From Pseudomonas phage LUZ100: a stretch of DNA of 37,343 nucleotides. The position numbers and the translations under genes are program-made. The stretch lies in sequence record OP329100.1; one strand, 5' to 3'. The notes beneath the pieces are model-generated. The model saw only the letters and a list, made by a program, of their open reading frames with translations, was not told where the DNA came from and did no database searches. Numbering within the stretch: position 1 is the stretch's first letter; every line of letters starts with the position of its first letter. Shown here piece after piece: positions 2,658-36,704 of this stretch.

Positions 2658-2743
2658 TGGTGCTCGGAGCGGGACTCGAACCCGCAAGACCGTAGGTCGG
2701 AGCATTTTAAGTGCTCTGTGTCTACCAATTTCACCATCCGAGC
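2658..2743 (-). tRNA. tRNA-Leu (anticodon TAA), 86 nt with long variable arm; likely attP core
   Basis: Minus-strand read GCTCGGATGGTGAAATTGGTAGACACAGAGCACTTAAAATGCTCCGACCTACGGTCTTGCGGGTTCGAGTCCCGCTCCGAGCACCA folds with a 7-bp acceptor stem, 3-bp D stem, anticodon loop CTTAAAA, 5-bp T stem GCGGG/CCCGC and CCA. Confidence 0.8.
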
Positions 2744-2755
2744 GAGGAGATACCC

Positions 2756-3829
2756 ATGCCGGTAAAGCCAAGAGGTCGTGGCTTTGAGGCCACAGTTAAC
2801 CACCAAGGGGGGAAGTACCGGAGGCAATTCACAACCCAGGTCGAAGCCGAAGCCTGGGAGAAGGCGACCAAAGCCGCCCTGATGAGGGGCGAGATGGTAT
2901 CAGAAACAACCAACTCTGCCAACGGAAATCCTAGCACTCTCAAGGAGTTGGCTGACTTAACTTACAAGCGATTCTGGCAAGGGCGCCCTGGAGGAGAAAC
3001 GGCCCTACGAAACGCAAAGCAGTGCATCAATATCCTCGGTGAGGGGATGTCCCCAGGCTCAGTAAACGAACAGCGCATCGACGACATGGTGTTCGCCCTA
3101 GAGCAGCTCGGGCTGTTCGACAGTACGATCAACCGCAAGCTCTCCGCTTTGTCCAAGATGCTGACCTTCGCCTATGAGCGGGGCTACATCAGCCGCAAGC
3201 CGAAGATCGAACGCAAGAAAGAACCCCAGAACCGCATCCGCTACTTCGACGAAGCAGAGGAGCAGCTCATCCTGGGAGCCTTCACCCACTTCGGGATGCT
3301 CGACATGGTCGACTTCTGCATCGTTGCAATCGACACCGGTATGCGGGTCGGTGAGATTCTGCGGATCGAAGACCGGGACGTAGCCAATGGGCTGGTGTCC
3401 GTGTGGCGCACGAAGAACGGTAAGGCAAGATCCATCCCGATGACGAAGCGCGTGGCTGAGGTATTGGAACGCCGCTTCAAGGAGGAGCGTCGCCGGATGA
3501 ACACCATCGGCAACGTGAAAGCCTTTGAGGGGTGGAACCACAGCAAGATCCGCACGCTGTGGGATCGAGTGCGCCGTCACCTGAAACTCATGACCGACCC
3601 GCAGTTCGTACCCCATGCAATGCGGCACACCTTCTGCTCCCGGCTGGTTCAGCGTGGAGTGGACATCGTGACGGTCTCGAAGCTGGCCGGTCACAGCTCC
3701 ATCGTAGTCACCATGCGGTACGCTCACCTCGCTCCCGATAGTCTGGCCCATGCCATTCGGAAGCTGGAAGAACCCGCAAAAGATGTAAATCCCCAAGCTC
3801 GACACACGACACAAGTTGTGTCGCGGTAG
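2756..3829 (+). CDS. int: Tyrosine-type site-specific integrase
   Basis: RBS gaggagataccc-ATG at 2756; C-terminal catalytic motifs HAMRHTFCSRLVQRGVDIVTVSKLAGHSSIVVTMRYAHL (H-x-x-R...H...Y); the ORF-track extension from 2711 would overlap the tRNA. Confidence 0.85.
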   Translation: MPVKPRGRGFEATVNHQGGKYRRQFTTQVEAEAWEKATKAALMRGEMVSETTNSANGNPSTLKELADLTYKRFWQGRPGGETALRNAKQCINILGEGMSPGSVNEQRIDDMVFALEQLGLFDSTINRKLSALSKMLTFAYERGYISRKPKIERKKEPQNRIRYFDEAEEQLILGAFTHFGMLDMVDFCIVAIDTGMRVGEILRIEDRDVANGLVSVWRTKNGKARSIPMTKRVAEVLERRFKEERRRMNTIGNVKAFEGWNHSKIRTLWDRVRRHLKLMTDPQFVPHAMRHTFCSRLVQRGVDIVTVSKLAGHSSIVVTMRYAHLAPDSLAHAIRKLEEPAKDVNPQARHTTQVVSR

Positions 3830-4160: not shown

Positions 4161-6686
4161 ATGACTTCCATCATCACCAACCAACTGATTCAGGAAATTG
4201 AGAACAACCAAGAGTGGCAAGAGAAGTTCGACCGTCAGGTAGAACTTGAGGAGAAGATGCGAGGTATGGGCGTCGACCGTCACTGGTCGGAGGTAGCCAA
4301 GGCCAGGGAGCGTGGTCAGGAAACCAGCGTCCGCTCCGTCCGCCGACTGATGAACTCGTCAGTCGCCAAGATCGCAGAAGGCATCCGCCAGTTCATCGAG
4401 AGCTGCGAGTCCGGCAAGGCTGGCCGCAAGCACAGCGCATACCCACTGCTCAAGCAGATCGAACCCGAGTCCGCAGCCCTGATCACCGCACGGGTGGTAC
4501 TGGATGGCGTGGCCAAGGGTGACCTGCTGGTTCCCCTGGCTCGCCGCGTTGCGTCCCTGATCGAGGACGAGCTGGCCTTCCGTGAGTTCGCCAAGGCGGA
4601 CAAGAAGACCTACGACTGGCTGGTCAAGCGCGAGAAGCGAGTCAACGGCAGCAGCTACCGCCGCCAGCGGCTGACCATGCTGCACAACATGGAGGCCCGC
4701 AACATCGCATGGCAGGAGTGGACTGCCCGCGAGTCCCTGCTGGTCGGCTCCAAGCTGATCGAGATCATGACCGAGACCACCGGCCTGATCCAGAAAGTCA
4801 CCCGCACCGTGGATGTGAAGCGCCAGGAGGTAGCCATCGAGGCCACCCCTGAGACCATCGCCTGGATCAACGAGGAGAACAACCGCTGCGAAGCTCTCTC
4901 CCCGGTGTACCTGCCCACCATCATCCCGCCTCGCCCCTGGACTTCACCGTTCGAGGGCGGCTACTGGACTCCGCGTGTCCGCCGACTGGCCCTGGTCAAG
5001 ACCCACTCGAAGGGGTACTTGGAGGAGCTGGCCGAACACGACATGCCGGAAGTCTACGATGCGATCAACGCCATGCAGCACACCGCCTGGGCCATCAATG
5101 GCCGGGTGCTGGAGGTGGTTCGCAACCTGTGGAACAACGGTGCCACTCTGGGTGGTATCCCTGCGGCTGACGATCTGCCGCTCCCGCCGAAGCCCCTGTT
5201 CCTTGAGCAGGAGCTGCCCCGCGAGGAGTGGTCGGAGGATCAGGTGCGCCAGTTCAAGGAGTGGAAGCGCGAGGCAACCGACACCTATGCGTCCAACGCG
5301 AAGCTGAAGTCCCTGCGTCTGCAGTTCGCCAAGGTGTTGATGATTGCCGAGATGTTCGAGCATGAGGAGGAAATCTACTTCCCGCACCAGTTCGACTTCC
5401 GTGGCCGGGCCTACGCTGTGCCGATGTTCCTGAACCCCCAAGGCAGCGACATCGCCAAGGGTCTGCTGGAGTTCGCCAATGCGGTAGCGATCAACGACGA
5501 GGAAGGTGCCAACTGGCTGGCCATCCACGGTGCCAACAGCTACGGCTACGACAAGGTCTCCCTGGCCGAGCGTGTGCGCTGGGTGCAGGAGAACGAGGGC
5601 GAGATCCTGGCCTGTGCTGCTGACCCGTACAGCCACAGCATGTGGGCCAAGGCCGACAAACCGTTCCAGTTCCTGGCGTTCTGCATCGAGTGGGCAGAGT
5701 TCAAGCGCGAGGGCTACGGCTACCTGTCGACCCTGCCCATCGCAATGGACGGTAGCTGCAACGGGCTGCAGAACTTCTCGGCCATGCTGCGTGATGCCAT
5801 CGGCGGCGAGGCCGTGAACCTCGTGCCCCAGGAGAAACCGGCGGACATCTACCAGAAGGTGGCCGACCGTGTGGTGCTGCGTGTCGAGGCTGATGCCATC
5901 GGCCAGGACGAGGAGCTGGCGAAGCTGGCCCAGGGCTGGCTCAAGCACGGCATCAACCGCAAGGTGTGCAAGCGCCCGGTGATGACCCTGGCCTACGGCG
6001 CCAAGGAGTTCGGCTTCAAGACCCAGGTGTTCGAGGACACCGTCATGCCGTACAAGCTGAAGGCTGGCAAGGAGTTCCCCTGGGAAGGCTCCGGCTGGGC
6101 TGCCGCTGAGTACATGGGCAAGCTGATCTGGGAGTGTGTCGGTGAGGTGGTGGTCGCTGCTCGTCAGGCTATGGACTGGCTGCAGAAGGCTGCGCGTCTG
6201 GCCGCGAAGGAAGGACTGCCGGTGCGCTGGAACACCCCGGACAATCTGGTCGTGCTCCAGGCGTACCCGAAGATGCTGACCGAGCGCATCGACCTGACCT
6301 TCGGGGGCAGCCGTCACCTGCTCACCGTGGCAGTCAGCCCGACCACCGAGCTGGATCGCAACAAGCAAGCCAACGGGATCAGCCCGAACTGGGTTCACTC
6401 GATGGACGCCAGCCACATGCGGGCCACTGTCCGCCGCTGCTGGAACGAGGGGATGCGCAGCTTCTCCCTGATCCACGACAGCTACGGCACCCACGCCGGG
6501 AACGCCTGGGCCTTGGCCAAGTTCCTGCGGGAGGAGTTCGTCATCATGTACGAGGAGGATGTGCTGGAAGACTTCAAGCGAGAACTGGAGCGGCAGCTCC
6601 CCGAAGGATCGGTGCTCGATCCGCTACCCCCGAAGGGCAACCTGAACTTGGCTCTGGTGCTGGAGTCCGCGTTCTTTTTTGCCTGA
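4161..6686 (+). CDS. T7-like single-subunit DNA-dependent RNA polymerase (841 aa)
   Basis: Collinear with T7 gene 1 product: PRPWTSPFEGGYWTPRVRRLALVKTHSK, DMPEVYDAINAMQHTAW, FPHQFDFRGRAYA, AMDGSCNGLQNFSAML, HDSYGTH, C-terminus PKGNLNLALVLESAFFFA. Confidence 0.95.
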   Translation: MTSIITNQLIQEIENNQEWQEKFDRQVELEEKMRGMGVDRHWSEVAKARERGQETSVRSVRRLMNSSVAKIAEGIRQFIESCESGKAGRKHSAYPLLKQIEPESAALITARVVLDGVAKGDLLVPLARRVASLIEDELAFREFAKADKKTYDWLVKREKRVNGSSYRRQRLTMLHNMEARNIAWQEWTARESLLVGSKLIEIMTETTGLIQKVTRTVDVKRQEVAIEATPETIAWINEENNRCEALSPVYLPTIIPPRPWTSPFEGGYWTPRVRRLALVKTHSKGYLEELAEHDMPEVYDAINAMQHTAWAINGRVLEVVRNLWNNGATLGGIPAADDLPLPPKPLFLEQELPREEWSEDQVRQFKEWKREATDTYASNAKLKSLRLQFAKVLMIAEMFEHEEEIYFPHQFDFRGRAYAVPMFLNPQGSDIAKGLLEFANAVAINDEEGANWLAIHGANSYGYDKVSLAERVRWVQENEGEILACAADPYSHSMWAKADKPFQFLAFCIEWAEFKREGYGYLSTLPIAMDGSCNGLQNFSAMLRDAIGGEAVNLVPQEKPADIYQKVADRVVLRVEADAIGQDEELAKLAQGWLKHGINRKVCKRPVMTLAYGAKEFGFKTQVFEDTVMPYKLKAGKEFPWEGSGWAAAEYMGKLIWECVGEVVVAARQAMDWLQKAARLAAKEGLPVRWNTPDNLVVLQAYPKMLTERIDLTFGGSRHLLTVAVSPTTELDRNKQANGISPNWVHSMDASHMRATVRRCWNEGMRSFSLIHDSYGTHAGNAWALAKFLREEFVIMYEEDVLEDFKRELERQLPEGSVLDPLPPKGNLNLALVLESAFFFA

Positions 6687-7667: not shown

Positions 7668-8113
7668 TGGCTGCTCCCCGAGAGGCCGGGCTTCGGCTCG
7701 GCTTCCGGTCGGGACTTGAGGAGAAGATCGCCCGAGAACTGGATGCCCACGGCATCGAGGTTCAGTACGAAACCGAACAGATCCGCTACGTCAAACCCGC
7801 CCGCGAAGCCAAGTACACCCCCGACTGGATACTGCCCAACGGAATCATCGTCGAGACCAAAGGCAGGTTCGTCGTCGAAGACCGCCAGAAACACCTGATC
7901 ATCAAGGAGCAGCACCCCGGCCTGGACGTGCGCTTCGTCTTTTCCAACTCCCGTACCCGCATCAGCAAGAACAGCAAGACCACCTACGCAATGTGGTGTG
8001 AGAAGTACGGGTTCCTGTTTGCCGACAAGTCCATCCCCGAGGCGTGGCTCAAAGAGCCGCACAGCCCGGAGCGTTGGGCTGCCCTGGAGAATGCACGAGT
8101 CAAGAAGAAATGA
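7667..8113 (+). CDS. Endonuclease I (T7 gp3-like Holliday junction resolvase)
   Basis: FRSGLEEKIARELD...YTPDWILPNGIIVETKG...KHLIIKEQHPGLDVRFVFS...FADKSIPEAWLKE collinear with T7 endonuclease I; start overlaps SSB stop (ATGA). Confidence 0.9.
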   Translation: MAAPREAGLRLGFRSGLEEKIARELDAHGIEVQYETEQIRYVKPAREAKYTPDWILPNGIIVETKGRFVVEDRQKHLIIKEQHPGLDVRFVFSNSRTRISKNSKTTYAMWCEKYGFLFADKSIPEAWLKEPHSPERWAALENARVKKK

Positions 8114-8622
8114 ACCGCGAGATTGACACCCTGATCATCCACACCGCCGCGACCAAGGCGACTGCGGACATAGGTGCCGTCGACATCGACAAGTGGCACC
8201 GCGCCCGTGGTTGGCTGGGCTGTGGCTACCACTTCGTTATCCGCCGCAACGGAACCATCGAGTCCGACGAGTTGGGTCACCGCTGCCGTCCGCTGGCCCA
8301 GGCCGGTGCCCATGTCGGTGACTGCGGCCCTGGCTGGAACAAGCGCAGTATCGGCATCTGTCTGGCCGGTGGTATCGACGCCAACGGTAAGGCCGAGAAC
8401 AACTACACCCCCGAGCAATGGAAGTCCCTGGAAGAAGTGGTGCTGTCCCTGCTCGAACGCTTCCCCTCCATCAAGACCATCGGTGGTCACCGCGACCTGA
8501 TCCGCAAGACTGGCGCACCGCCGAAGGACTGCCCGTGCTTCAACGTGAAGGACTGGTTCGAGAAGGAAGTGAAGCCGAAGTACCCCGAGGCCGCGTACAT
8601 CCAGGCCGTGAAGTACATCTGA
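8101..8622 (+). CDS. N-acetylmuramoyl-L-alanine amidase (T7 lysozyme gp3.5-like)
   Basis: IIHTAATKA...WHRARGWLGCGYHFVIRRNGTIE...HVGDCGPGWNKRSIGICLAGGID...CPCFNV matches the T7 lysozyme zinc-amidase signature; ATG 8101 overlaps the gp3 end. Confidence 0.85.
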   Translation, partial: QEEMNREIDTLIIHTAATKATADIGAVDIDKWHRARGWLGCGYHFVIRRNGTIESDELGHRCRPLAQAGAHVGDCGPGWNKRSIGICLAGGIDANGKAENNYTPEQWKSLEEVVLSLLERFPSIKTIGGHRDLIRKTGAPPKDCPCFNVKDWFEKEVKPKYPEAAYIQAVKYI

Positions 8623-16392: not shown

Positions 16393-16415
16393 AATTACCA
16401 CACAGTCTTGGAGGA
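16393..16415 (+). promoter_or_regulatory. Phage RNAP promoter, family A copy 5 (AATTACCACACAGTCTT|GGAGGA), phi6.5 analogue
   Basis: Family A consensus; followed by an A-rich leader shared with the right-end copy. Confidence 0.6.
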
Positions 16416-17590: not shown

Positions 17591-19132
17591 ATGGAACAAA
17601 CGGCTGGCGGGCGCTACAACGCCCTGATCAGCTTCCGTGAGCCATTCCTTCAACGCGCACGAGAAGCTGCCAAACTCACCATCCCGTCGCTCCTCCCTCC
17701 TGCAAACCACTCCGCACACTCCAAGCTCCCGACCCCGTTCCAGGGGCTGGGCGCTCGCGGCGTCAACAACCTCTCCTCGAAGCTGCTCCTGGCACTCATG
17801 CCGCCGAACAGTCCGTTCTTCCGGCTGACGGTGGACGACTACACCCTGGAGCAGATGACCCAGCAAGAGGGCATGAGGGCCGAGGTTGAGGAAGCCCTGG
17901 GCAAGATCGAGCGTGCTGTCATGTACGACATCGAGTCCCAGGCCATCCGCGTCTCGACCGGCGAAGGTCTCAAGCAGTTGCTCGTTGCGGGCAACGTGCT
18001 GCTGTACCTCGCCCCCGAGGGAGGCATGAAGGTCTACCGCCTGGATCGCTACGTCGTCCGCCGTGACCCCATGGGGAACGTGCTGGAGATCATCGTGCAG
18101 GACGTGGTCTCGCCCGAGGCACTACCTCAGGACTTCCTGGCCAAGCTCAAGGACGCCCCGCAGTTGACCAAGGAGAAGACCCTGGAGCTGTACACCCGGA
18201 TCTACCGGGACGGCAACGAGTGGCGGATCTACCAAGAGGTCAAGGGTGAGCGTGTCCCCGGCACCGAGGGCACCTATCCGCTGGACAAGTCCCCGTGGCT
18301 GGCCTTGCGGTTCACCAAGATCGACGGCGAAGACTATGGCCGTGGCTACGTCGAGGAGTACTACGGTGACCTCCGGTCGCTGGAAGCCTTGACCCAGGCC
18401 ATCGTTGAAGGCTCGGCTGCCGCTGCCAAGGTGCTGTTCCTCGTGAACCCTAATGGCACCACCGAGCAGCGAACCCTGACCGAGTCCCCCAACGGGGCTG
18501 TCCGTACCGGTAATGCCCAGGACGTCACTGTCCTGCAGGTGGAGAAGTTCGCTGACTTCCGCATCGCCTTCGAGACCATCGAGGCGATCAGCCAGCGGCT
18601 GTCCTTCGCGTTCCTGCTCAACACCGCCGTTCAGCGTGGTGGCGAGCGCGTGACCGCCGAGGAGATTCGGTACATGGCCGGTGAGCTGGAGGATGCCCTT
18701 GGCGGCGTCTACTCGATCCTCTCCCAGGAGTTCCAGTTCCCCCTGGTGCAGCGCCTGATCCTGCAACTGGAGAAGCGCAAGAAGATCCCGGCACTCCCGA
18801 AGGACACCGTCCGCCCGACCATCACCACCGGCCTGGAAGCCCTTGGCCGTGGGCACGACCTGAACAAGCTCGATGCCTTCATCCAGGGCGTGAACCAGAC
18901 GTTCGGCCCGGAGGTGGTCGCTCGCTACCTCAACGTCGGGGACTACATGACCCGTCGCGGTACAGCGCTTGGCCTGGACATGAAGGGTCTGGTGCGCAGC
19001 GAAGACGAAGTCAAGGCGATGGAGCAACAGCAAGCCCAGGAAGAACAGATGGCCCAGCTCGGCCAGATGCTCGCCCAGGGCGGTATGGGAATGGCAACCG
19101 AAGTAGTCAAGGCAGGTGTGAAGAATGGCTGA
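17591..19132 (+). CDS. Head-to-tail connector (portal) protein, T7 gp8-like
   Basis: Collinear with T7 gp8: TIPSLLPP, GARGVNNLSSKLLLALMPP, YRLDRYVVRRDPMGNVLEI, GERVTAEEIRYMAGELEDALGGVYSILSQEFQFPLVQ. Confidence 0.95.
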   Translation: MEQTAGGRYNALISFREPFLQRAREAAKLTIPSLLPPANHSAHSKLPTPFQGLGARGVNNLSSKLLLALMPPNSPFFRLTVDDYTLEQMTQQEGMRAEVEEALGKIERAVMYDIESQAIRVSTGEGLKQLLVAGNVLLYLAPEGGMKVYRLDRYVVRRDPMGNVLEIIVQDVVSPEALPQDFLAKLKDAPQLTKEKTLELYTRIYRDGNEWRIYQEVKGERVPGTEGTYPLDKSPWLALRFTKIDGEDYGRGYVEEYYGDLRSLEALTQAIVEGSAAAAKVLFLVNPNGTTEQRTLTESPNGAVRTGNAQDVTVLQVEKFADFRIAFETIEAISQRLSFAFLLNTAVQRGGERVTAEEIRYMAGELEDALGGVYSILSQEFQFPLVQRLILQLEKRKKIPALPKDTVRPTITTGLEALGRGHDLNKLDAFIQGVNQTFGPEVVARYLNVGDYMTRRGTALGLDMKGLVRSEDEVKAMEQQQAQEEQMAQLGQMLAQGGMGMATEVVKAGVKNG

Positions 19133-19295: not shown

Positions 19296-20072
19296 ATGGC
19301 TGAAGTCCTGAACACCCAAGGCACCCCGAACAGCGAAGCCCCGGCTGGCCACGATGCAGCCATGGCCGCTGCAGTTGACCAGAAGAACGCCGAGCTGGCG
19401 AACCTGGGCAACGACGCGCCGAAACCGCAAGAGCCTCTGCTGGGCAAGTTCCAGTCCGTCGACGATCTGGCCAAGGCGTATCAGGAGCTGGAGCGCAAGC
19501 TGGGCCAGAAGCCCCAGGAACCGGCCAAGCCGGATGTCACCGACATGACCCCCGAGAAACTCGACGAGCTGGCCCAGAAGAACGGCTTCGACATCGAGGA
19601 GATGTCCAGCTTCTACGAGGCCAACGGCGGTCTGTCCGAAGACCACTACGCCCAACTGGAGAAGGCTGGCATCCCGCGTGCCTACGTCGACCAGTACATC
19701 GCTGGCGTGGAAGCTGAGGCCGAGCGCGCCCGTGATGCCATCTTCCAAGAGGTCGGCGGCGAGCAAGCCTTCCAGGCCATGTCGCAGTGGGCACTGGCCA
19801 ACCTGAGCAAGGAAGACCTGAACCGCTACAACCTTGCTGTCGAGAGCGGCGACATGGACACCGTGCGCAGTGCCGTGATGTCCCTGGCGTACCGCTACCA
19901 GAAGGCAGTCGGCTCCGATCCGAAGCTGGTCAATGGCCAGAACGGTGGCGGTGCCGGTGGTTATGAGTCCCTGGCTCAACTGACCGCAGCAATGCAAGAC
20001 CCCCGCTATGAGAAAGACCCGGCCTACCGCCGCGAGGTAGAGGCCCGTCTGGCTCGTTCCAACATCTTCTGA
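19296..20072 (+). CDS. Capsid assembly (scaffolding) protein, T7 gp9-like
   Basis: RBS agaggagaaccaaATG; acidic, helical, LLGKFQSVDDLAKAYQELERKLG; position between portal and capsid. Confidence 0.8.
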   Translation: MAEVLNTQGTPNSEAPAGHDAAMAAAVDQKNAELANLGNDAPKPQEPLLGKFQSVDDLAKAYQELERKLGQKPQEPAKPDVTDMTPEKLDELAQKNGFDIEEMSSFYEANGGLSEDHYAQLEKAGIPRAYVDQYIAGVEAEAERARDAIFQEVGGEQAFQAMSQWALANLSKEDLNRYNLAVESGDMDTVRSAVMSLAYRYQKAVGSDPKLVNGQNGGGAGGYESLAQLTAAMQDPRYEKDPAYRREVEARLARSNIF

Positions 20073-20080
20073 GGTGAACC

Positions 20081-20278
20081 ATGATCGAAACTGTCCTCGA
20101 AAACTGGGACGGCATCCTGGCAGTCATCGTGGCTGCCCATGCCCTGGCCCTGGCCATCGTCAACCTGACCCCGACCCCTCGTGATGACGAGATCGTGGGC
20201 AAGGTCTACAAGGTCGTCGAAGCGCTCGCTGGCGTTGTCACCCGCAAGGCCAAGGAGCTGCCCGGCGAGAAGCTGTGA
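20081..20278 (+). CDS. Small single-TM membrane protein (65 aa), holin-like or antiholin-like, directly upstream of the spanins
   Basis: Hydrophobic stretch ILAVIVAAHALALAIV with a charged C-terminus; RBS ctgaggtgaaccATG. Confidence 0.4.
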   Translation: MIETVLENWDGILAVIVAAHALALAIVNLTPTPRDDEIVGKVYKVVEALAGVVTRKAKELPGEKL

Positions 20279-20511
20279 AGGCGCTCCTCAAGGCGCTCCA
20301 GTCGATCCTCCAACTAGCCACCCTGGTGCTCACCCTCCTGCGTGACGACAAGTTGCGCCAGGAAGGTGAGCGCAAGGTGCGCCTGGAGGCGATGGAGGCC
20401 GAGCAACAGCGCCGTGGAGAAGCCCATGAGATTGACCTGCAGGTGGCTCGTGGTGGCCTGTCTGACGCTGATCTTGAGCGGATGCGCCGCTACCAACGCG
20501 CCAGTCGATGA
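20275..20511 (+). CDS. i-spanin (Rz-like): N-terminal TM plus charged coiled-coil (78 aa)
   Basis: GTG start overlapping the previous stop; ILQLATLVLTLL TM, then R/E-rich helix; contains the o-spanin start in another frame. Confidence 0.55.
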   Translation: MKALLKALQSILQLATLVLTLLRDDKLRQEGERKVRLEAMEAEQQRRGEAHEIDLQVARGGLSDADLERMRRYQRASR

Positions 20512-20617
20512 GTGCTCCTGGGTGAAGCCCATCAGTTGGCATGAAGACGACACCCCGACTACCAAGCAGGAGGTCTTCGCCCACAACCTCAAGTGGGAGA
20601 AGTTCTGCCTCCGGTAA
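20426..20617 (+). CDS. o-spanin (Rz1-like outer-membrane lipoprotein), overlapped with the i-spanin gene
   Basis: MRLTCRWLVVACLTLILSGC: positive n-region, hydrophobic core and lipobox L-S-G-C; starts in the +1 frame inside the i-spanin and extends past it. Confidence 0.65.
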   Translation: MRLTCRWLVVACLTLILSGCAATNAPVDECSWVKPISWHEDDTPTTKQEVFAHNLKWEKFCLR

Positions 20618-20638
20618 TTACCACACAGTTATGGAGAA
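20616..20638 (+). promoter_or_regulatory. Phage RNAP promoter, family A copy 6 (AATTACCACACAGTTAT|GGAGAA), phi10 analogue
   Basis: Family A consensus; transcript begins with perfect hairpin GGAGAACaagatcGTTCTCC (20633-20652). Confidence 0.6.
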
Positions 20639-20830
20639 CAAGATCGTTCTCCGATCTCTCCTGTTGGTTGGTACTTCGGGGCTGGCTTCATGTCGGCCTC
20701 GCTTTTTCCCAGGATTCCATCGCCCCCAAGCCTCTGGCCGGGTTCCCCGTCACCCGCGTATCTAAGGCCACGCTCAAATCGTGGGGCCGCTAGGCAGCTT
20801 GCTCCGTCTGCCGAATCACGGAGCTTTCAC

Positions 20831-20906
20831 TGGCATGTAGCTCAGATGGTAGAGCACCCGGCTGTTAACCGGGCGGTCGCAGGTTCGAGTCCTGCCGTGC
20901 CAGCCA
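20831..20906 (+). tRNA. tRNA-Asn (anticodon GTT), 76 nt
   Basis: TGGCATGTAGCTCAGATGGTAGAGCACCCGGCTGTTAACCGGGCGGTCGCAGGTTCGAGTCCTGCCGTGCCAGCCA: cloverleaf with 7-bp acceptor stem (one G-U), anticodon loop CTGTTAA, T-loop TTCGAGT, CCA end. Confidence 0.85.
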
Positions 20907-21191: not shown

Positions 21192-22145
21192 ATGGCTGAC
21201 GCTATCGTTTCGCGTCTGGGTCAGATCAACGGCAGCGGCGCTGTCGATGCTCTGTTCCTGAAAGTGTTTGCTGGTGAAGTTCTGACCAGCTTCGAGAAGA
21301 CCAACGTGATGATGGGCAAGCACCAAGTGCGAACCATCGCCAACGGCAAGTCTGCTCAATTCCCGGTAATGGGCCGCGCGAGCGCCTACTACCACACTCC
21401 GGGCCAGGAGATTCTGGGCGGCACCCTGAAGCACGCCGAGAAGATCATCACCATTGATGAACTCCTGATCGCGCCGACCTTCATCGCCAACATCGACGAG
21501 GCGAAGAACCACTACGACGTTCGCTCGGTTTACACCCGCGAGATGGGTGCCAAGCTGGCGAACACCATGGACAAGCACATCCTGCAAACTGGTGTGCTGG
21601 CTGCCCGTACCGCCAAGACCATCAACGACCCGGATCAGTTCGGTGGCACCACCATCAACAACGTGGCCGCTGATAACGGCGATGCCCTGGCAGACGCCAT
21701 GTTCGAGGCTGCTCGCATCCTCGACGAGAAGGACGTTCCGGCTGACGAGCGGTACCTGTTCGTGCGCCCGGCTCAGTTCTACGCCCTGGCGAAGTCGACC
21801 AAGGTTCTGAACCGCGACTGGGGTGGCGAAGGTTCTTACGCTGGCGGCAACGTGATCCGCGTTGCTGGCATCACCATCGTCAAGACCAACAACCTGCCGA
21901 ACACCGTTGTCGCTGCAGGTTCCCTGGACGCTGGCACTGGCGACAAGTACGCCGGTGACTTCTCCAAGACTGTCGGTCTGGTGATGCACCCGTCGGCAAT
22001 CGGCACTGTGAAGCTGCTCGACCTGGGCATGGAGTCCGAGTACCAGATCAGCCGTCAGGGCACCCTGATGGTTGCTAAGTACGCGGTCGGCCACGGCGTT
22101 CTGCGCCCGGAAGCTGCAGTGGAACTGTCCACCGCTGTTGCGTAA
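21192..22145 (+). CDS. Major capsid protein, T7 gp10A-like
   Basis: LFLKVFAGEVLTSFEKT, GKSAQFPVMGR, HAEKIITIDELL, NHYDVRSVYT, GHGVLRPEAA collinear with T7 gp10A. Confidence 0.95.
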   Translation: MADAIVSRLGQINGSGAVDALFLKVFAGEVLTSFEKTNVMMGKHQVRTIANGKSAQFPVMGRASAYYHTPGQEILGGTLKHAEKIITIDELLIAPTFIANIDEAKNHYDVRSVYTREMGAKLANTMDKHILQTGVLAARTAKTINDPDQFGGTTINNVAADNGDALADAMFEAARILDEKDVPADERYLFVRPAQFYALAKSTKVLNRDWGGEGSYAGGNVIRVAGITIVKTNNLPNTVVAAGSLDAGTGDKYAGDFSKTVGLVMHPSAIGTVKLLDLGMESEYQISRQGTLMVAKYAVGHGVLRPEAAVELSTAVA

Positions 22146-31670: not shown

Positions 31671-33623
31671 ATGGCTCTTGCACGAGTCACCTATACCCAG
31701 AGCGTCAACGGTAACCGCAACTTCTCGGTGCCTTTCCCGTACCTGTCCAAGGATCACGTCAAGGTCACCGTGAACGGCGCAGCCGTGACGTTCTCCTGGC
31801 TGTCGGCCTCGTCCATCCAGTTGACCACGGCACCGGCCATCGGCGCCAAGGTCGAGGTTCGCCGGGTAACCGAGCGCAACTCTCTGCTGGTGGACTTCGC
31901 GGACGGCTCCACGCTCACCGAAAGCCAGCTCGATCTGGCCAGCAAGCAGAACTTCTATCTGTCCCAGGAAGCGGATGACCTGGCTGTCGAATCCAATGGT
32001 CTGGCGAACAATGCAGTGAGCATCGCCAATGGTGCTACCACTACGGCCAATGAGGCGAAGACCCTCGCCAACAGCGCGGTGAGTACCGCAAACACAGCGA
32101 ACTCCACTGCCAACCAAGCCAAGACCTCTGCTGATAGCGCTGTGGTAACTGCCGGTAACGCCGCCAACACCGCTTCATCTGCAGTGGTGACTGCCAACGG
32201 AGCGGTTCAAACCGCCCAACAGGCTGACTCTAAGGCTGGCTCCGCCGTGACAACCGCTTCCCAAGCGAATAGCCGTGCAGCCAGCGCGGAATCCAAAGCT
32301 GATTCGGCAGTAGCCACCGCCAATGGGGCTAACACGAAGGCAGACGCCGCCACGAACACAGCGAACACCGCACTGAGTACCGCGAACACCGCACTGAGCA
32401 ATTCGGAAGCCGCTGTGTCTCTAGCTAACGCGGCGTCGATCAGCTCCGACGAAGCTCAGGCATCCTCAAGCGCTGCCCAGGCTGCTGCCCAGGCTGCTGC
32501 CCAGGACGCCCAAACAGCGGTGAACACTGCTCTAGGGTTAGAGTCAACAGTCAATCAGGTTCTGCAGGATGTCCAAGCGATTGCCGGTGGTGACCTCTCG
32601 GACTTCGCAAAGAACTCCGAGAACTTGTCCGGCCTAACTAATAAGGCAGCGGCAAGAAGTAACTTGGGCCTTGGTCAGGTAGACAACACCCGTGACTTGG
32701 ATAAGCCGATCTCGAACGCTACACAACAAGCGCTCGACACAAAAGCTGAATCCGTTCATGTACACACCAAGTCTCAGATCACTGACTTCACTGTAAGTTG
32801 GGACGAGGTCACAGGTAAACCGTCAACTTTCACCCCGAGCAGTCACAGTCATGCCGCTACGGACTTGCCGGGTTCCGTGCGGGGTCTGGTAGCGTCCTAC
32901 GGGAGCGGTTGGGGAGATCCAAATAGCTCAGTAGACCACATCCTACTTTCCAATCACGCGAATACCCCAAATTCGTCGTTCTACTGGCACATCTACACGA
33001 GCTTCTACTCGTCGATTAGCTCGACAGCGAACCGCTCGCAGTTGGCCATCCAATATAACGGCGGCAATCAAGTATACGCCCGCTCGTGTTTCAACTCGAC
33101 GTGGACGCCTTGGGTGCGTTTGGATGTTGGCGATTGGGATACGCTGCTGAATAAGCCGAGCAGTTTTACACCCTCGGCTCACTCTCACGTATGGGCGGAT
33201 ATTACCAACCCTCCGGCACAAGCGACTCGGTGGCCTACTTGGACAGAAGTAACCAGTAAGCCCACTACCTTCCCCCCGAGTAGCCACACGCACGGCGTAA
33301 ATGACATTGCCACAGCATTTACCGCTGCGGGTTTGCAGAGTCTCGGAACTGACGGTTACCAGCAGTTCCCTGGTGGGTTAATCCTGCAGTGGGGTAGAAC
33401 TGCCAGCATAGCTGGTGATTCGAGCACCACCATTACCTTTCCCATCACTTTCCCTTCAGTTGTCGCAGTGGCCCATGCAACGCCACTTGTAACCGGCAAC
33501 GCGGTCACCAGCGACAACTGGGGCATGGTAGAGCCGATTAGCACCTCCCAACTACGTGTGTACCGTGGGTTAAAAGGTGTCAGCCAGAAAAACCTTGTTT
33601 ATTGGACGGCTATTGGATACTGA
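31671..33623 (+). CDS. Tail fiber protein: gp17-like N-terminal adaptor domain fused to repeat-rich and low-GC C-terminal domains
   Basis: N-terminus VTYTQSVNGNRNFSVPFPYL...VEVRRVTERNSLLVDFADGS parallels T7 gp17 (LTYQLDGSNRDFNIPFEYL...ELRRVTSTTDRLVDFTDGS); then Ala/Ser/Thr/Asn-rich repeats; C-terminal part has different base composition. Confidence 0.9.
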   Translation: MALARVTYTQSVNGNRNFSVPFPYLSKDHVKVTVNGAAVTFSWLSASSIQLTTAPAIGAKVEVRRVTERNSLLVDFADGSTLTESQLDLASKQNFYLSQEADDLAVESNGLANNAVSIANGATTTANEAKTLANSAVSTANTANSTANQAKTSADSAVVTAGNAANTASSAVVTANGAVQTAQQADSKAGSAVTTASQANSRAASAESKADSAVATANGANTKADAATNTANTALSTANTALSNSEAAVSLANAASISSDEAQASSSAAQAAAQAAAQDAQTAVNTALGLESTVNQVLQDVQAIAGGDLSDFAKNSENLSGLTNKAAARSNLGLGQVDNTRDLDKPISNATQQALDTKAESVHVHTKSQITDFTVSWDEVTGKPSTFTPSSHSHAATDLPGSVRGLVASYGSGWGDPNSSVDHILLSNHANTPNSSFYWHIYTSFYSSISSTANRSQLAIQYNGGNQVYARSCFNSTWTPWVRLDVGDWDTLLNKPSSFTPSAHSHVWADITNPPAQATRWPTWTEVTSKPTTFPPSSHTHGVNDIATAFTAAGLQSLGTDGYQQFPGGLILQWGRTASIAGDSSTTITFPITFPSVVAVAHATPLVTGNAVTSDNWGMVEPISTSQLRVYRGLKGVSQKNLVYWTAIGY

Positions 33624-33632
33624 GGAGCATTT

Positions 33633-34043
33633 ATGTACTTCTACTCCCCAACAACAAAAGGGTTTTACCCAGCGGAGTTTGCCTCGAACTATAAAGAGGC
33701 TGATGCGTGGCCTAGCGATTGTGTTGAGGTCACGCTTGAAGAGCACCGTGCTCTTATTGAAGGCCAAAACGGTGAGACTGAGATCGCTTTCGATGCGACG
33801 CTAGGTAAGCCTGTTTTGAGGAAGCGGGTTCCGCCTCCCTTGGAGGAGCGGCGGGCCTTCATCGAACGGCAGCGTCGTAACGCCTACGCAGACCCTCAGA
33901 CGGGAAGCGACCGTCTTTTCGCTGAGGCAAACCGGATGCAGCTCACAGGCGAGACCGGATGGGAGGAGCTTCTGGAGAAAGCCAAGGCCCGCTACACGGA
34001 GATTAAGGAGACGCTCCCTTGGCCTTCGGAGGCTTCTGAATGA
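33633..34043 (+). CDS. Tail fiber assembly protein / chaperone (Tfa-like), 136 aa
   Basis: N-terminal MYFYSPTTKGFYPAEF...DCVEVTLEEHRALIEGQ matches the tail fiber assembly protein start pattern (Y-F-Y/S...GFY...V.V..eeh..L); low GC. Confidence 0.6.
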   Translation: MYFYSPTTKGFYPAEFASNYKEADAWPSDCVEVTLEEHRALIEGQNGETEIAFDATLGKPVLRKRVPPPLEERRAFIERQRRNAYADPQTGSDRLFAEANRMQLTGETGWEELLEKAKARYTEIKETLPWPSEASE

Positions 34044-34267
34044 CCGTCCGCCACGCTGCTGAGCAAGTCGCTCTCGTCACCACTCCCGTACCGGTGGGTG
34101 TCTCGGGCATGACTATGTTCGGGATCACCCTGCAGGACTGGGTGTTCATCGGCACCGCGATGCTGCTGGTGTTCCAGATCATCGTGTTCCTGCCCAAGGT
34201 ACGGGATGCCTTCAAATCCCTGTTCGGTAAGGAGAAACCCAATGACCGCACCGAAAGAGCTTCTTGA
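34040..34267 (+). CDS. Holin, T7 gp17.5-like (class II)
   Basis: PVPVGVSGMTMFGITLQDWVFIGTAMLLVFQI parallels T7 holin PIVGTGVADVSARLFFGLSLNEWFYVAAIAYTVVQI; canonical position before small terminase. Confidence 0.8.
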   Translation: MTVRHAAEQVALVTTPVPVGVSGMTMFGITLQDWVFIGTAMLLVFQIIVFLPKVRDAFKSLFGKEKPNDRTERAS

Positions 34268-34475
34268 GGCTCTCCATGCGGCGGTCGGTGAGAAGCTCCT
34301 GGCTCGCATCCAGTCTGGAGAGGCGACTGCCTCGGATTTCGCCCAGGCCATCAAGTTCTTGAAGGACAACGGCATCGAGGCAATCCCGACTGCCGGTAAC
34401 TCCCTGGAGCGACTGACCAATTCGTTGACCAGCCAGCTCCCGTTCACCGATCCCAACGATCCCGCATACCACTAA
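34242..34475 (+). CDS. Terminase small subunit (gp18-like), 77 aa
   Basis: RBS ggtaaggagaaacccaATG; position between holin and large terminase; helical small protein. Confidence 0.55.
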   Translation: MTAPKELLEALHAAVGEKLLARIQSGEATASDFAQAIKFLKDNGIEAIPTAGNSLERLTNSLTSQLPFTDPNDPAYH

Positions 34476-34557: not shown

Positions 34558-35010
34558 ATGCGTTTCTGTGGAGCTTACAGCCCTATGAAAATCTGTACCC
34601 AATGCAAACAAAACAAGCCCCTAGATGGATTTCATAAACACCCTAATGGCACTTACGGAGTGGCTTCAAAGTGCAAGGATTGCCTGAAGTTCGCTCATAG
34701 GAAGAAGTCAGTACACAAAGTCCTACTGAACAACGCAAAGAACAGGGCGCGTAATAGAGGTCTGGACTTTTCTCTGTCCAGCGAGTGGTTGGCGGCCAAG
34801 TTGGAGAAAGGAGTGTGTGAAGTAACCGGAATCAGGTTTGAAGGTTACTGCTCCTCGTTCGCCCCCTCCCTCGACAGGAAAGACCCTGCCAAAGGCTACA
34901 CCGAAGATAACACTCAAGTTGTCGTTTGGATTTATAACCGCTGCAAAAACAGCGGGAGTCATGAAGATGTACTCCGCATGGCTTTAGCTTTGTCTGGGGG
35001 TATCCACTGA
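34558..35010 (+). CDS. HNH endonuclease (possible alternative start at 34585)
   Basis: Cys-rich N-terminus (CTQCKQNKPLDGFHKH...CKDC) and HNH core PSLDRKDPAKGYTEDNTQVVVWIYNRCKN; markedly lower GC than its neighbours. Confidence 0.7.
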   Translation: MRFCGAYSPMKICTQCKQNKPLDGFHKHPNGTYGVASKCKDCLKFAHRKKSVHKVLLNNAKNRARNRGLDFSLSSEWLAAKLEKGVCEVTGIRFEGYCSSFAPSLDRKDPAKGYTEDNTQVVVWIYNRCKNSGSHEDVLRMALALSGGIH

Positions 35011-36704
35011 TGGATAGCAAAAAAGGTCACAAACTCCCAGAGGGGCACCCACTCTACGACTTTCGCAACTTCCTGTTCGTCGTGTGGGAGTTCCTGTGGA
35101 ATGCCGGGGCCATCACGGCAGCAAAGCCAGACCCCACCCCAATACAATACGACATCGCTCACTTCCTCCAGCACGGCCCTCGACGCAAGGTCATCGAGGC
35201 GTTCCGGGGGGTGGGCAAGAGCTGGATCACCTCGGCCTACGTCTGCTGGCGACTCCTGCTCGATCCCAACCTCAACTTCCTCGTGGTCTCGGCCTCGAAG
35301 GATCGCGCTGACCAGTTCTCGACGTTCACCAAGCGGCTGATCTTCGAGCTGCCCATCCTGGCCCACCTGCGGCCCAGGGACGGCCAACGCAACTCCAACA
35401 TCATGTTCGACGTTGGCCCGGCTGGTATCAGCCACTCCCCTTCCGTGAAGTCCGTGGGTATCACCGGCCAGCTCACTGGTAGCCGTGCTGACGAGATCAT
35501 CGCGGACGACGTTGAGTCTTTGAACAACTCGCTCACCCAGGTGATGCGCGACCAGCTCTCCGAGCGGATCAAGGAGTTCGACGCGATCATCAAGCCTGGT
35601 GGGCGCATCACGTTCCTGGGCACGCCTCAGACCGAGATGTCGATCTACAACCAGCTCACCGAGCGTGGCTACCAGATCCGCGTCTGGCCAGCTCGTATCC
35701 CAGAAGACCCCGACAAGTACCAGGGCCGTCTGGCTCCCTACATCATGGACATGATCGCCCGTGGTGCTAAGACCAGGGAGACCACCGATCCCAAGCGGTT
35801 CAGCTCGGAGGACTTGCTGGAGCGTGAAGCCTCCTACGGTCGATCCGGCTTCGCCCTGCAGTTCATGCTGGACACCAGCCTGAGCGACCAAGAGAAGTAC
35901 CCGCTGCGGCTACAAGACCTGATCGTCATGCCCCTGGATACCCGCATGGCCCCCGTGAAGGTGGTCTGGTCGTCTGGCCCGGAGTACGTCCTGAACGATG
36001 TCCCGTGTGTGGGCATGGGTGGTGATCGGTTCTACCGGCCCATGTGGACTGCCCAGGACATGGCCGAGTACACCGGCTCGGTGATGTTCATCGACCCGTC
36101 CGGTCGCGGTAAGGACGAGACCTCCTACGCGGTCGTGAAGATGCTCCACGGGTGGCTCTACTTGGTCGACTGCGGGGGTTTCACCGGGGGCTACAACGAC
36201 GAGACCCTCAAGAGCCTGTGCCTCGTGGCAGCCAAGCACTCGGTCAATCTGGTGCTGATCGAGCCCAACTTCGGTGACGGTATGTTCCTCGAACTCCTCA
36301 AGCCCTGGATGACTCGGTTCCACCCGGTCACCCTGGAGGAAGCCCCAAGGGCATCCATGCAGAAGGAGAAGCGGATCATCGACGTACTGGAGCCTGTGAT
36401 GAACCAGCACCGTCTGGTGATCGACAAGGCGCTCGTGAAGAAGGACTACGACTCAGCCCCTGATCCCAAGTACAGCCTGTTCTACCAGCTCACCCGAATC
36501 ACCAAGGACAAGGGCGCATTGATCCACGATGACCGCCTGGATGCGCTTGCAGGGGCCGTTGCGTACTGGGTGGAGCAGATGGGTAGGGATACCGAGAAAG
36601 CCGCTCAGAGCCACCGGGAGAGGCTCCTAGACGCTGAACTGCAGAAGTTCGCACGCAGCGTCCTGGGCTATTCGCCCCAGGCTGACACATGGATGGTTAT
36701 GTAG
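35010..36704 (+). CDS. Terminase large subunit (gp19-like)
   Basis: PDPTPIQYDIAHFLQHGPRRKVIEAFRGVGKSWITSAYVCW...LVVSASKDRADQFS parallels T7 gp19; ATPase Walker A/B then nuclease domain. Confidence 0.9.
   Translation: MDSKKGHKLPEGHPLYDFRNFLFVVWEFLWNAGAITAAKPDPTPIQYDIAHFLQHGPRRKVIEAFRGVGKSWITSAYVCWRLLLDPNLNFLVVSASKDRADQFSTFTKRLIFELPILAHLRPRDGQRNSNIMFDVGPAGISHSPSVKSVGITGQLTGSRADEIIADDVESLNNSLTQVMRDQLSERIKEFDAIIKPGGRITFLGTPQTEMSIYNQLTERGYQIRVWPARIPEDPDKYQGRLAPYIMDMIARGAKTRETTDPKRFSSEDLLEREASYGRSGFALQFMLDTSLSDQEKYPLRLQDLIVMPLDTRMAPVKVVWSSGPEYVLNDVPCVGMGGDRFYRPMWTAQDMAEYTGSVMFIDPSGRGKDETSYAVVKMLHGWLYLVDCGGFTGGYNDETLKSLCLVAAKHSVNLVLIEPNFGDGMFLELLKPWMTRFHPVTLEEAPRASMQKEKRIIDVLEPVMNQHRLVIDKALVKKDYDSAPDPKYSLFYQLTRITKDKGALIHDDRLDALAGAVAYWVEQMGRDTEKAAQSHRERLLDAELQKFARSVLGYSPQADTWMVM

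Follow-up and report, generated by a model that had tools for sequence, protein, structure and literature searches.

The best known two-component spanins, gp18.5/gp18.7 of phage T7 and Rz/Rz1 of phage lambda, combine a helical inner-membrane subunit (i-spanin) with a small outer-membrane lipoprotein (o-spanin) read in the +1 frame. Both phages have i-spanins of about 145–153 amino acids (aa), and the gene for the o-spanin lies wholly within that for the i-spanin. T7 separates its amidase, holin and spanins along the genome, with the spanin pair lying between the terminase genes, and the spanins of T4 are far from the T4 holin and endolysin. Here we describe a small gene module of Pseudomonas phage LUZ100, a phage of Pseudomonas aeruginosa (Putzeys et al., mSystems 2023, PMC10134795), in which two overlapping genes at positions 20275–20617, between the scaffold and capsid genes, likely encode a two-component spanin of the same class. 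The window, that is, the whole stretch of DNA analysed, is the complete genome of this T7-like phage (37,343 bp, 61% GC, every gene on the + strand).

More closely related spanin genes are found in two cultured phages with conventional lysis cassettes, Pseudomonas phage AF and Aeromonas phage vB_AhyS-A18P4 (hereafter A18P4), whose o-spanins are homologous to the LUZ100 lipoprotein at 36–38% identity. In AF, the endolysin gene is followed by gp21 (82 aa, Rz-like) and the overlapped gp22 (67 aa, Rz1-like), and in A18P4 the gene after the endolysin is Rz-like (gp44, 82 aa), with an unannotated homologue of the LUZ100 lipoprotein gene overlapping it. These pairs resemble that of LUZ100 in having an i-spanin of about 82 aa with a basic, R-rich C-terminal motif and an o-spanin gene that starts inside the i-spanin gene and runs past its end, but they directly follow the endolysin, whereas the LUZ100 pair lies between the scaffold and capsid genes.

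The placement has a parallel in Ralstonia phage BOESR1 (Gyeongsanvirus), the portal of which is 61% identical to that of LUZ100. The same slot of BOESR1, between head assembly and the major head protein, encodes, in the same order as in LUZ100, a small membrane protein, a helical N-anchored protein and a lipoprotein of the phrog_1275 family (E 5e-16). However, the BOESR1 genes are separated rather than overlapped, the i-spanin has 100 aa and a classical transmembrane domain (TMD), and the first gene encodes a two-TMD holin (phrog_1356/DUF7940), not a member of the LTPTPxDD family that opens the LUZ100 module. Rhizobium phages RHEph21 and RHEph01 (Paadamvirus), the closest cultured relatives of LUZ100, are T7-like and possess an integrase gene with a tRNA-Leu close by; like LUZ100, they carry a homologue of the first module gene (42% identity) and a tRNA-Asn(gtt) between scaffold and capsid, but unlike LUZ100, they have no spanin pair in this slot. 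The phage collection searched contained no close LUZ100 relative; its best match, RHEph21, reached 77% along a portion of the portal gene.

In LUZ100, three small + strand open reading frames (ORFs), referred to here as ORF65, ORF78 and ORF63, fill the stretch from the scaffold gene to the capsid promoter (Table 1). ORF65 (65 aa) begins with an ATG preceded by the Shine-Dalgarno sequence GAGGTG. ORF78 begins with a GTG, the most upstream start possible, which overlaps the ORF65 stop codon as GTGA, and the same stop-start coupling takes the form of GTGA, TGATG or TAATG in relatives. The ATG start of ORF63 follows GGAGAA; its frame is +1 relative to that of ORF78, and the two genes share 86 nt (65–113 nt in 10 relatives). 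In the published LUZ100 annotation (table S4), ORF65 and ORF63 are listed as gp37 and gp38, both 'hypothetical', ORF78 is left out, and spanin equivalents could not be annotated (PMC10134795). Our survey of the literature on LUZ100, temperate T7-like phages and Gyeongsanvirus in connection with spanins found no earlier report of these genes.

A lipobox pattern occurs in 3 ORFs genome-wide, compared with 2.7 ± 1.9 in dinucleotide shuffles. The pattern alone is thus not beyond chance, and the case for genes rests on conservation instead; the other two pattern-bearing ORFs are out of frame or antisense inside known genes, which leaves ORF63 as the only credible lipoprotein gene in LUZ100. Nine near-identical IMG/VR contigs and one prophage on a 289-kb contig carry all three ORFs intact, and the spanin pair is present in the diverged T7-like contigs with a detected o-spanin, at portal identities to LUZ100 of 56–80%. 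Independent gene calls from P. aeruginosa and Metapseudomonas genomes also include ORF78, labelled as a hypothetical protein. The ratio of nonsynonymous to synonymous substitution rates (dN/dS) was 0.17–0.32 for ORF65, 0.35–0.48 for the free part of ORF78 and 0.04–0.21 for that of ORF63. Where the two genes overlap, it was 0.08–0.11 in the ORF78 frame versus 0.85–1.14 in the ORF63 frame, indicating that selection guards the C-terminus of ORF78 and not the exact signal-peptide sequence of ORF63. The three ORFs are real genes, with conservation that exceeds chance.

Homology points to a spanin role most directly for ORF63 (gp38, 63 aa). It matches phrog_1275, annotated 'Rz-like spanin' (E 1.6e-12), with residues 6–61 aligned to profile positions 7–69 of 81. 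Its N-terminus, MRLTCRWLVVACLTLILSGC, fits a rule-based lipoprotein signal test in which Cys20 is the predicted lipidated residue, and the mature protein would have 44 aa. An alignment of 12 homologues, which takes in AF gp22 and the BOESR1 Rz-like spanin, shows G19, C20, C30, T43, T46, H53 and C61 to be invariant, including both cysteines of the predicted periplasmic part (C30 and C61); AF gp22 shares the invariant Cys, Thr and His positions. The homologues in the cultured phages AF and A18P4 sit in conventional lysis cassettes, after the endolysin. Pfam (E ≤ 0.1) has no family for ORF63 or ORF78, and no curated lambda or T7 Rz/Rz1 model was matched; NCBIfam gave no more than noise-level lipoprotein-signal matches. 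gp38 is therefore unrelated in sequence to its lambda and T7 counterparts, and as judged with Pfam, the pair as a whole has no detectable sequence similarity to those of T7 and lambda. Retention of lipoproteins in the inner membrane by Lol sorting depends on Asp at +2 in E. coli and on Lys-Ser at +3/+4 in P. aeruginosa. The mature N-terminus of gp38, C-A-A-T-N, has no such retention signal, hence outer-membrane sorting is expected, but only expected. A scan of species-representative genomes with an alignment of closer o-spanins detected no more than three loci, all prophage-like, in Telmatospirillum, Devosia and one metagenome-assembled genome.

The evidence that ORF78 is the partner of this lipoprotein comes from its family. 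A profile search of 1.84 billion representative proteins yielded 192 clusters aligned end to end (median 76 aa), in which an N-terminal hydrophobic or amphipathic helix, K-L-R-x-x-G, E-I-D and a C-terminal E-R-M-R-x-Y-Q-R (ERMRRYQR in ORF78) are conserved. At every locus of this family that we examined, a lipoprotein homologous to ORF63 overlaps the gene in the +1 frame, an overlapped architecture found in 228 of the 528 known two-component spanin systems. AlphaFold2, run on a 22-sequence alignment, predicts for ORF78 a helix at residues 2–60, a break at GGL and a second helix at 64–76 (mean pLDDT 85), with a helix length of about 9 nm.

The genes of the pair exist, are conserved and under selection, and are transcribed according to published data; members of their families occur in lysis cassettes. 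We consider it likely that 20275–20617 encodes an overlapped-type two-component spanin that acts in the ordinary spanin pathway. A preceding sequence-only reading of this DNA had proposed the three ORFs, an o-spanin starting in an alternate frame inside the i-spanin, and a clear o-spanin lipobox; all of these were recovered here, the lipobox being LSGC, with Cys20 assigned by rule and Gly19 and Cys20 invariant in the 12 homologues. Its spanin assignment is likewise supported, for the lipoprotein by phrog_1275 homology, lipobox, conserved cysteines and homologues in canonical lysis cassettes, and for the 78-aa gene by the pairing, the overlapped +1 layout, purifying selection and the predicted long helix. 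That reading had also called the i-spanin unusually short. At 78 aa it is short but does not fall outside published values: the combined periplasmic length of ORF78 and gp38, about 100 aa, lies inside the published range of 62–300 aa.

Several observations count against this assignment, most of them concerning ORF78. The PHROG, Pfam and NCBIfam profiles gave no match for it, and the match of its family to the AF/A18P4 i-spanins, with which sequence similarity is marginal, is weak (hhalign probability 58%). Residues 4–22 (LLKALQSILQLATLVLTLL) have a Hessa sum of +3.67 kcal/mol, a KD19 of 1.76, a helical moment of 0.43 and a mean hydrophobicity of 0.48, with a polar stripe formed by K6, Q9, S10, Q13, T16 and T20. 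By comparison, the helical moments of lambda Rz, T7 gp18.5, AF gp21, A18P4 gp44 and the BOESR1 i-spanin are 0.04–0.20, and the i-spanins of AF and A18P4 have clearly hydrophobic TMDs (Hessa sum 0.1–0.4, moment 0.08–0.20), in contrast to the amphipathic LUZ100 anchor. The N-terminal segment of ORF78 thus appears to be amphipathic and borderline hydrophobic, and a clear N-terminal TMD (N-in, C-out), a defining i-spanin feature, is not evident in it. Across 169 family members, the Hessa sum of the anchor segment ranges from -3.4 (P0234, a clear TMD) to above +10, exceeding +5 in 76 of the 169, and many members have 2–5 charges in the core of the segment. The periplasm is about 20 nm wide, by estimate, and the ORF78 helix together with a 44-aa lipoprotein is short for that distance. 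Finally, ORF78 has no cysteine, and AlphaFold2 modelled ORF63 with low confidence (pLDDT 66), so that this model was left aside for disulfide geometry.

The strongest competing explanation takes ORF63 as an o-spanin-type lipoprotein but ORF78 as a non-spanning peripheral or cytoplasmic amphipathic helix that works unlike Rz/Rz1, and that might reach the periplasm via holin lesions, insert as an oligomer or affect lysis timing in an antiholin-like manner. Apart from the moment and hydrophobicity of the N-terminal helix, it draws on the AlphaFold2 model, which joins this helix seamlessly to the next one, and on several family members with 3–5 charged residues in the segment, helices that cannot alone span a bilayer. 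A further point is that ORF78, like 159 of 169 family members, is cysteine-free, whereas at least one homotypic disulfide is reported to be general in spanin complexes. However, C30 and C61 of gp38 are predicted to be able to supply the disulfide even though ORF78 has no cysteine. Moreover, the family includes unmistakable TMDs (P0234, P0200 and P0235) with the same downstream motifs and an overlapped lipoprotein, homologous lipoproteins overlap both extremes (the TMD-type member at L104 and the amphipathic member at L105), and the partners of the homologous o-spanins in AF, A18P4 and BOESR1 are classical TMD proteins of similar lengths. We consider a non-spanning ORF78 improbable and read it as the partner subunit of the o-spanin, however it may be anchored. 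The amphipathic anchor, in addition to the absence of ORF78 from the annotation, probably explains why a membrane-signal screen missed this gene.

Lipidation, membrane topology, complex formation and the lysis role of the pair are what we infer from sequence, and in the ordinary spanin pathway they would combine as follows. The gp38 precursor would be processed and lipidated at Cys20, and the mature lipoprotein would end up in the inner leaflet of the outer membrane. ORF78 would provide a helix on the inner-membrane side, the conserved C-terminus of which (ERMRRYQR) would bind the conserved C-terminal domain of gp38; the presence of conserved C-terminal motifs in both proteins is compatible with binding. 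The holin gp50, possibly with ORF65, would permeabilise the inner membrane, the amidase gp17 would then degrade murein, and the ORF78/gp38 complexes, freed by the loss of the wall, would bring both membranes together and disrupt the outer membrane as the last step of lysis.

A different role for the lipoprotein, such as the superinfection exclusion or receptor masking known from some temperate phages, with ORF78 unrelated and LUZ100 lacking spanins altogether, appears very unlikely. Small phage lipoproteins can indeed be exclusion factors, T5 Llp being an example, and such a role would fit a phage that carries an integrase and related elements that are prophages. The LUZ100 paper also saw normal lysis without recognised spanins (PMC10134795), but normal lysis is expected anyway when spanins are present. 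Furthermore, the family is annotated as spanin, its AF and A18P4 members follow the endolysin, the gene is on a late structural transcript and not under a host promoter, and the same helical partner is overlapped in the loci examined. That the small ORFs are merely chance open frames of GC-rich intergenic DNA, which yields many spurious ORFs and lipobox patterns at chance frequency, and in which ORF78 went uncalled in the published annotation and in one metagenome gene call, has a negligible probability and is already refuted by conservation and dN/dS, given that the ORFs are intact down to about 30–60% protein identity, are under purifying selection in the correct frames, and have significant PHROG matches and hundreds of homologous clusters.

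The transcriptional context of the pair was examined using the phage RNA-polymerase promoter motif AATTACCACACAG, which has 7 matches (up to 2 mismatches) in LUZ100 versus 0.45 expected, coinciding with published transcription start sites (TSSs). The capsid transcript has a published TSS at 20635 (PMC10134795), and its promoter overlaps the ORF63 stop codon, so that the module ends exactly at the promoter. Published long-read transcription units that start at 16410 have 3' ends at 20382, 20828, 21001 and 22194 (PMC10134795). The module lies on this transcript together with portal and scaffold, which makes the spanins late genes co-transcribed with the head-assembly genes. One of the published 3' ends, T13 (20382), falls inside ORF78, 44 nt before the o-spanin start, and might mark a processing site through which the proportion of the two spanin subunits is set. 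We rejected T13 as an argument against ORF78 because the site is no intrinsic terminator and is passed by longer transcripts. Also rejected was gp39 (20631–20765) as a part of the module, its start being upstream of the capsid TSS; this 44-aa frame, which starts 4 nt upstream of position 20635, in the leader before the tRNA, is probably not a gene. A terminator-like hairpin is located at 20677–20701.

Outside LUZ100, the order scaffold, ORF65, short i-spanin, overlapped o-spanin and capsid is found in contigs L024/25, L027, L028, L029-31, L042, L054, L069 and L087/89; in L026, the module recurs with a different o-spanin and an extra gene. The module also lies between scaffold and capsid in prophages. 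Because the same slot is used in diverged contigs, prophages and BOESR1, the placement is a trait of a wide clade and not a private LUZ100 rearrangement. In two further cultured phages that, like BOESR1, are among the nearest by portal protein, Bordetella phage BB8 (L096 6545–6934) and Ralstonia phage DU_RP_I (L097 6533–6919), the slot is occupied by a 128-aa multi-TMD protein of phrog_28107, of unknown function, and no spanin follows it. For closely related European Ralstonia phages of the same genus, a published analysis likewise identified neither holin nor spanin, although in the genomes of this group examined here (DU_RP_I and BB8) the multi-TMD protein is all that the slot contains. The scaffold-capsid slot is an overlooked home for lysis genes in this T7-like branch.

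The sequence-only reading had described the spanins as relocated to this slot while the holin stayed at the T7 position and an endonuclease took the place of the spanins in the terminase region. The location is as described, but relocation is true only relative to T7: the placement is clade-wide, and T7 and T4 already scatter their lysis genes. The holin gp50, published as a type II holin (PMC10134795), does occupy the T7 holin position, upstream of the small terminase gene; in addition to its match to a holin PHROG (Table 1), it scores 18.3 bits against PF10746 (T7 holin), under the cut-off of 25.4. The slot between the terminase genes, which holds 18.5/18.7 in T7, is indeed filled by an HNH/endonuclease VII-type gene in LUZ100. 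The amidase gene gp17 sits in the DNA-metabolism region, as in T7.

For ORF65, the same reading had suggested a single-TMD second holin or antiholin. The single TMD is borne out, in the form of one N-terminal transmembrane helix at about residues 11–29 (KD19 2.37, Hessa sum 0.36), and the role gains indirect support from the family to which ORF65 belongs and from the holin in the BOESR1 slot. In this family, the motif LTPTP[KR]DD is invariant; the C-terminus of ORF65 is basic and amphipathic, with 7 basic and 6 acidic residues in the C-terminal half, and the N-terminus is acidic, a charge distribution that predicts an N-out/C-in topology. ORF65 matches phrog_9685 (E 4e-9) and phrog_402, both of unknown function, whereas Pfam and NCBIfam have no family for it, and no described holin family was matched. 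Grouped at 90% identity, the family forms more than 1800 clusters; it is found at over 537 viral loci and comes mostly from marine and soil viruses, with every named member annotated as 'hypothetical'; a marine homologue used as the query in the phage collection retrieved only Synechococcus phage S-SRP02 and RHEph01/21, all hypothetical. With ORF65 itself as the query, tblastn retrieved nothing from this collection, an outcome probably due to low-complexity filtering.

In 33 T7-like loci, the gene immediately after that for the scaffold is a homologue of ORF65, whether or not spanin genes come next, and in RHEph21 and some contigs it is alone in the slot. Among loci of non-T7 virus types, an endolysin gene lies within 4 kb of the homologue in 37 of 47, a count that overstates independence, these 47 loci being related to one another. 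In about 15 of the 37, the endolysin starts 7–800 nt downstream on the same strand, most of these endolysins combining a glucosaminidase with a C39 peptidase (family phrog_10051), and in the remaining endolysin-linked loci, a lysozyme gene is 1–3 kb off on the opposite strand. In S-SRP02, the homologue adjoins a C39 peptidase gene. Given this endolysin linkage and the BOESR1 slot holin, a holin-like or antiholin-like function is our best guess for ORF65, with roughly even chances of being correct.

A more far-reaching reading, which we regard as rather unlikely, is that in a wide clade of integrase-bearing T7-like phages the slot is a self-contained envelope-disruption module in which the LTPTPxDD proteins form a large unrecognised holin/antiholin family and many of the approximately 75-aa partners, perhaps including that of LUZ100, are amphipathic-anchored and have no TMD. 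If true, the amphipathic anchor would imply another route to the periplasmic face, by oligomeric insertion or passage through holin lesions, and such pairs would escape any screen that demands a TMD, accounting for the several phages of this branch that have been reported without spanins. Both the anchor and the LTPTPxDD family offer concrete, cheap targets for lysis genetics.

Under the ordinary two-component spanin reading, the kind of system is already known, and the o-spanin family is already annotated as spanin. What is added here is that the pair is recognised in LUZ100, against what had been published, that its position between scaffold and capsid holds across the clade, and that the i-spanin-like family, which has no entry in current profile libraries, has an unusual anchor. 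The account of LUZ100 in the literature, which had discussed lysis without spanins, would be corrected to a complete set of amidase, holin and spanins. The findings also point to an annotation blind spot across a branch to which LUZ100-like Pseudomonas prophages, many contigs of environmental origin and at least one Ralstonia Gyeongsanvirus belong, and in which the i-spanin-like gene is often skipped by gene callers because it overlaps its neighbours. When LUZ100 or its relatives are engineered for therapy or as a source of synthetic-biology parts, the three genes should not be treated as dispensable unknowns.

The gene order of LUZ100 is RNA polymerase, portal, scaffold, capsid, tail and internal virion genes, fibre, holin and terminases, and the coordinates of the module and of the landmark genes are given in Table 1.

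Table 1. Module features and landmark genes in the LUZ100 genome.
Feature	Position	Strand	Basis or remark
RNA polymerase gene	4161-6686	+	
gp17, T7 gp3.5-like N-acetylmuramoyl-L-alanine amidase (endolysin)	8110..8622	+	PF01510, E 1.2e-15 on ORF 8044-8622
Phage promoter reading through portal, scaffold, ORF65 and spanin pair	16393..16405	+	motif; published TSS 16410
Portal gene	17591-19132	+	
Scaffold gene	19296-20072	+	PF05396
ORF65 (gp37), candidate holin-like or antiholin-like protein	20081..20278	+	single TMD; linkage to lysis genes
ORF78, putative i-spanin-equivalent partner	20275..20511	+	pairing with lipoprotein; overlap; purifying selection; predicted long helix
ORF63 (gp38), likely o-spanin, predicted outer-membrane lipoprotein precursor	20426..20617	+	phrog_1275; lipobox; conserved cysteines
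ORF63 lipobox L-S-G-C, residues 17-20; Cys20 predicted lipidation and signal peptidase II cleavage site	20474..20485	+	rule-based pattern
Capsid-gene phage RNA-polymerase promoter motif	20616..20628	+	AATTACCACACAG; overlaps ORF63 stop codon
Capsid gene	21192-22145	+	PF21703
Fibre gene	31671-33623	+	
gp50, T7 gp17.5-like holin	34040..34267	+	phrog_920 'holin', E 5.7e-11
Small terminase gene	34206-34475	+	
HNH/endonuclease VII-type gene	34558..35010	+	phrog_3322, E 3e-29; phrog_1035, E 4e-24
Large terminase gene	35010-36704	+	

Further variation was seen in the slot and around the lysis genes of related phages. In the more distant T7-like contigs L045 (4134–4562) and L053 (4122–4568), whose portal identity is 44%, a 142–148-aa lipoprotein (lipobox LPGC) comes after the ORF65 homologue and precedes a 77–83-aa helical protein, a gene pair that may represent a different spanin-like pair in reversed order. 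XhlA-like proteins, with an N-terminal coiled coil, a C-terminal TMD and a weak match to phrog_1193, are encoded at L001 36043–36291, L099 14189–14419 and L084 4452–4748. In RHEph21/RHEph01 and BOESR1, such a protein is found at the T7 gp17.5 position, where LUZ100 has its gp17.5-like holin, and in other viral contigs it lies between the ORF65 homologue and the endolysin gene, a pattern suggesting that it is another kind of membrane-lesion protein, interchangeable with the gp17.5-type holin. In DU_RP_I, an endonuclease VII gene splits the major head gene, and homing endonucleases appear to move around the late region of LUZ100-related phages.

LUZ100 carries two tRNAs, at 2658–2742 and 20831–20906. 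The latter, tRNA-Asn(gtt), sits between the capsid TSS and the capsid gene and is thus made from the strongest late transcript. A tRNA-Asn(gtt) is present in the same slot in RHEph21 (L001 22617–22690), in one diverged contig and in a prophage relative (L031 4768–4842, L013 10405–10479), and the 15 remaining loci that were checked lack it, L026 having a tRNA-Ala call instead. The former, tRNA-Leu(taa), called at 2658–2743 on the - strand, abuts the integrase gene, the published start of which is 2756; the longest integrase ORF (2711–3829) overlaps the tRNA. RHEph21 has a tRNA-Leu(tag) at the equivalent place.

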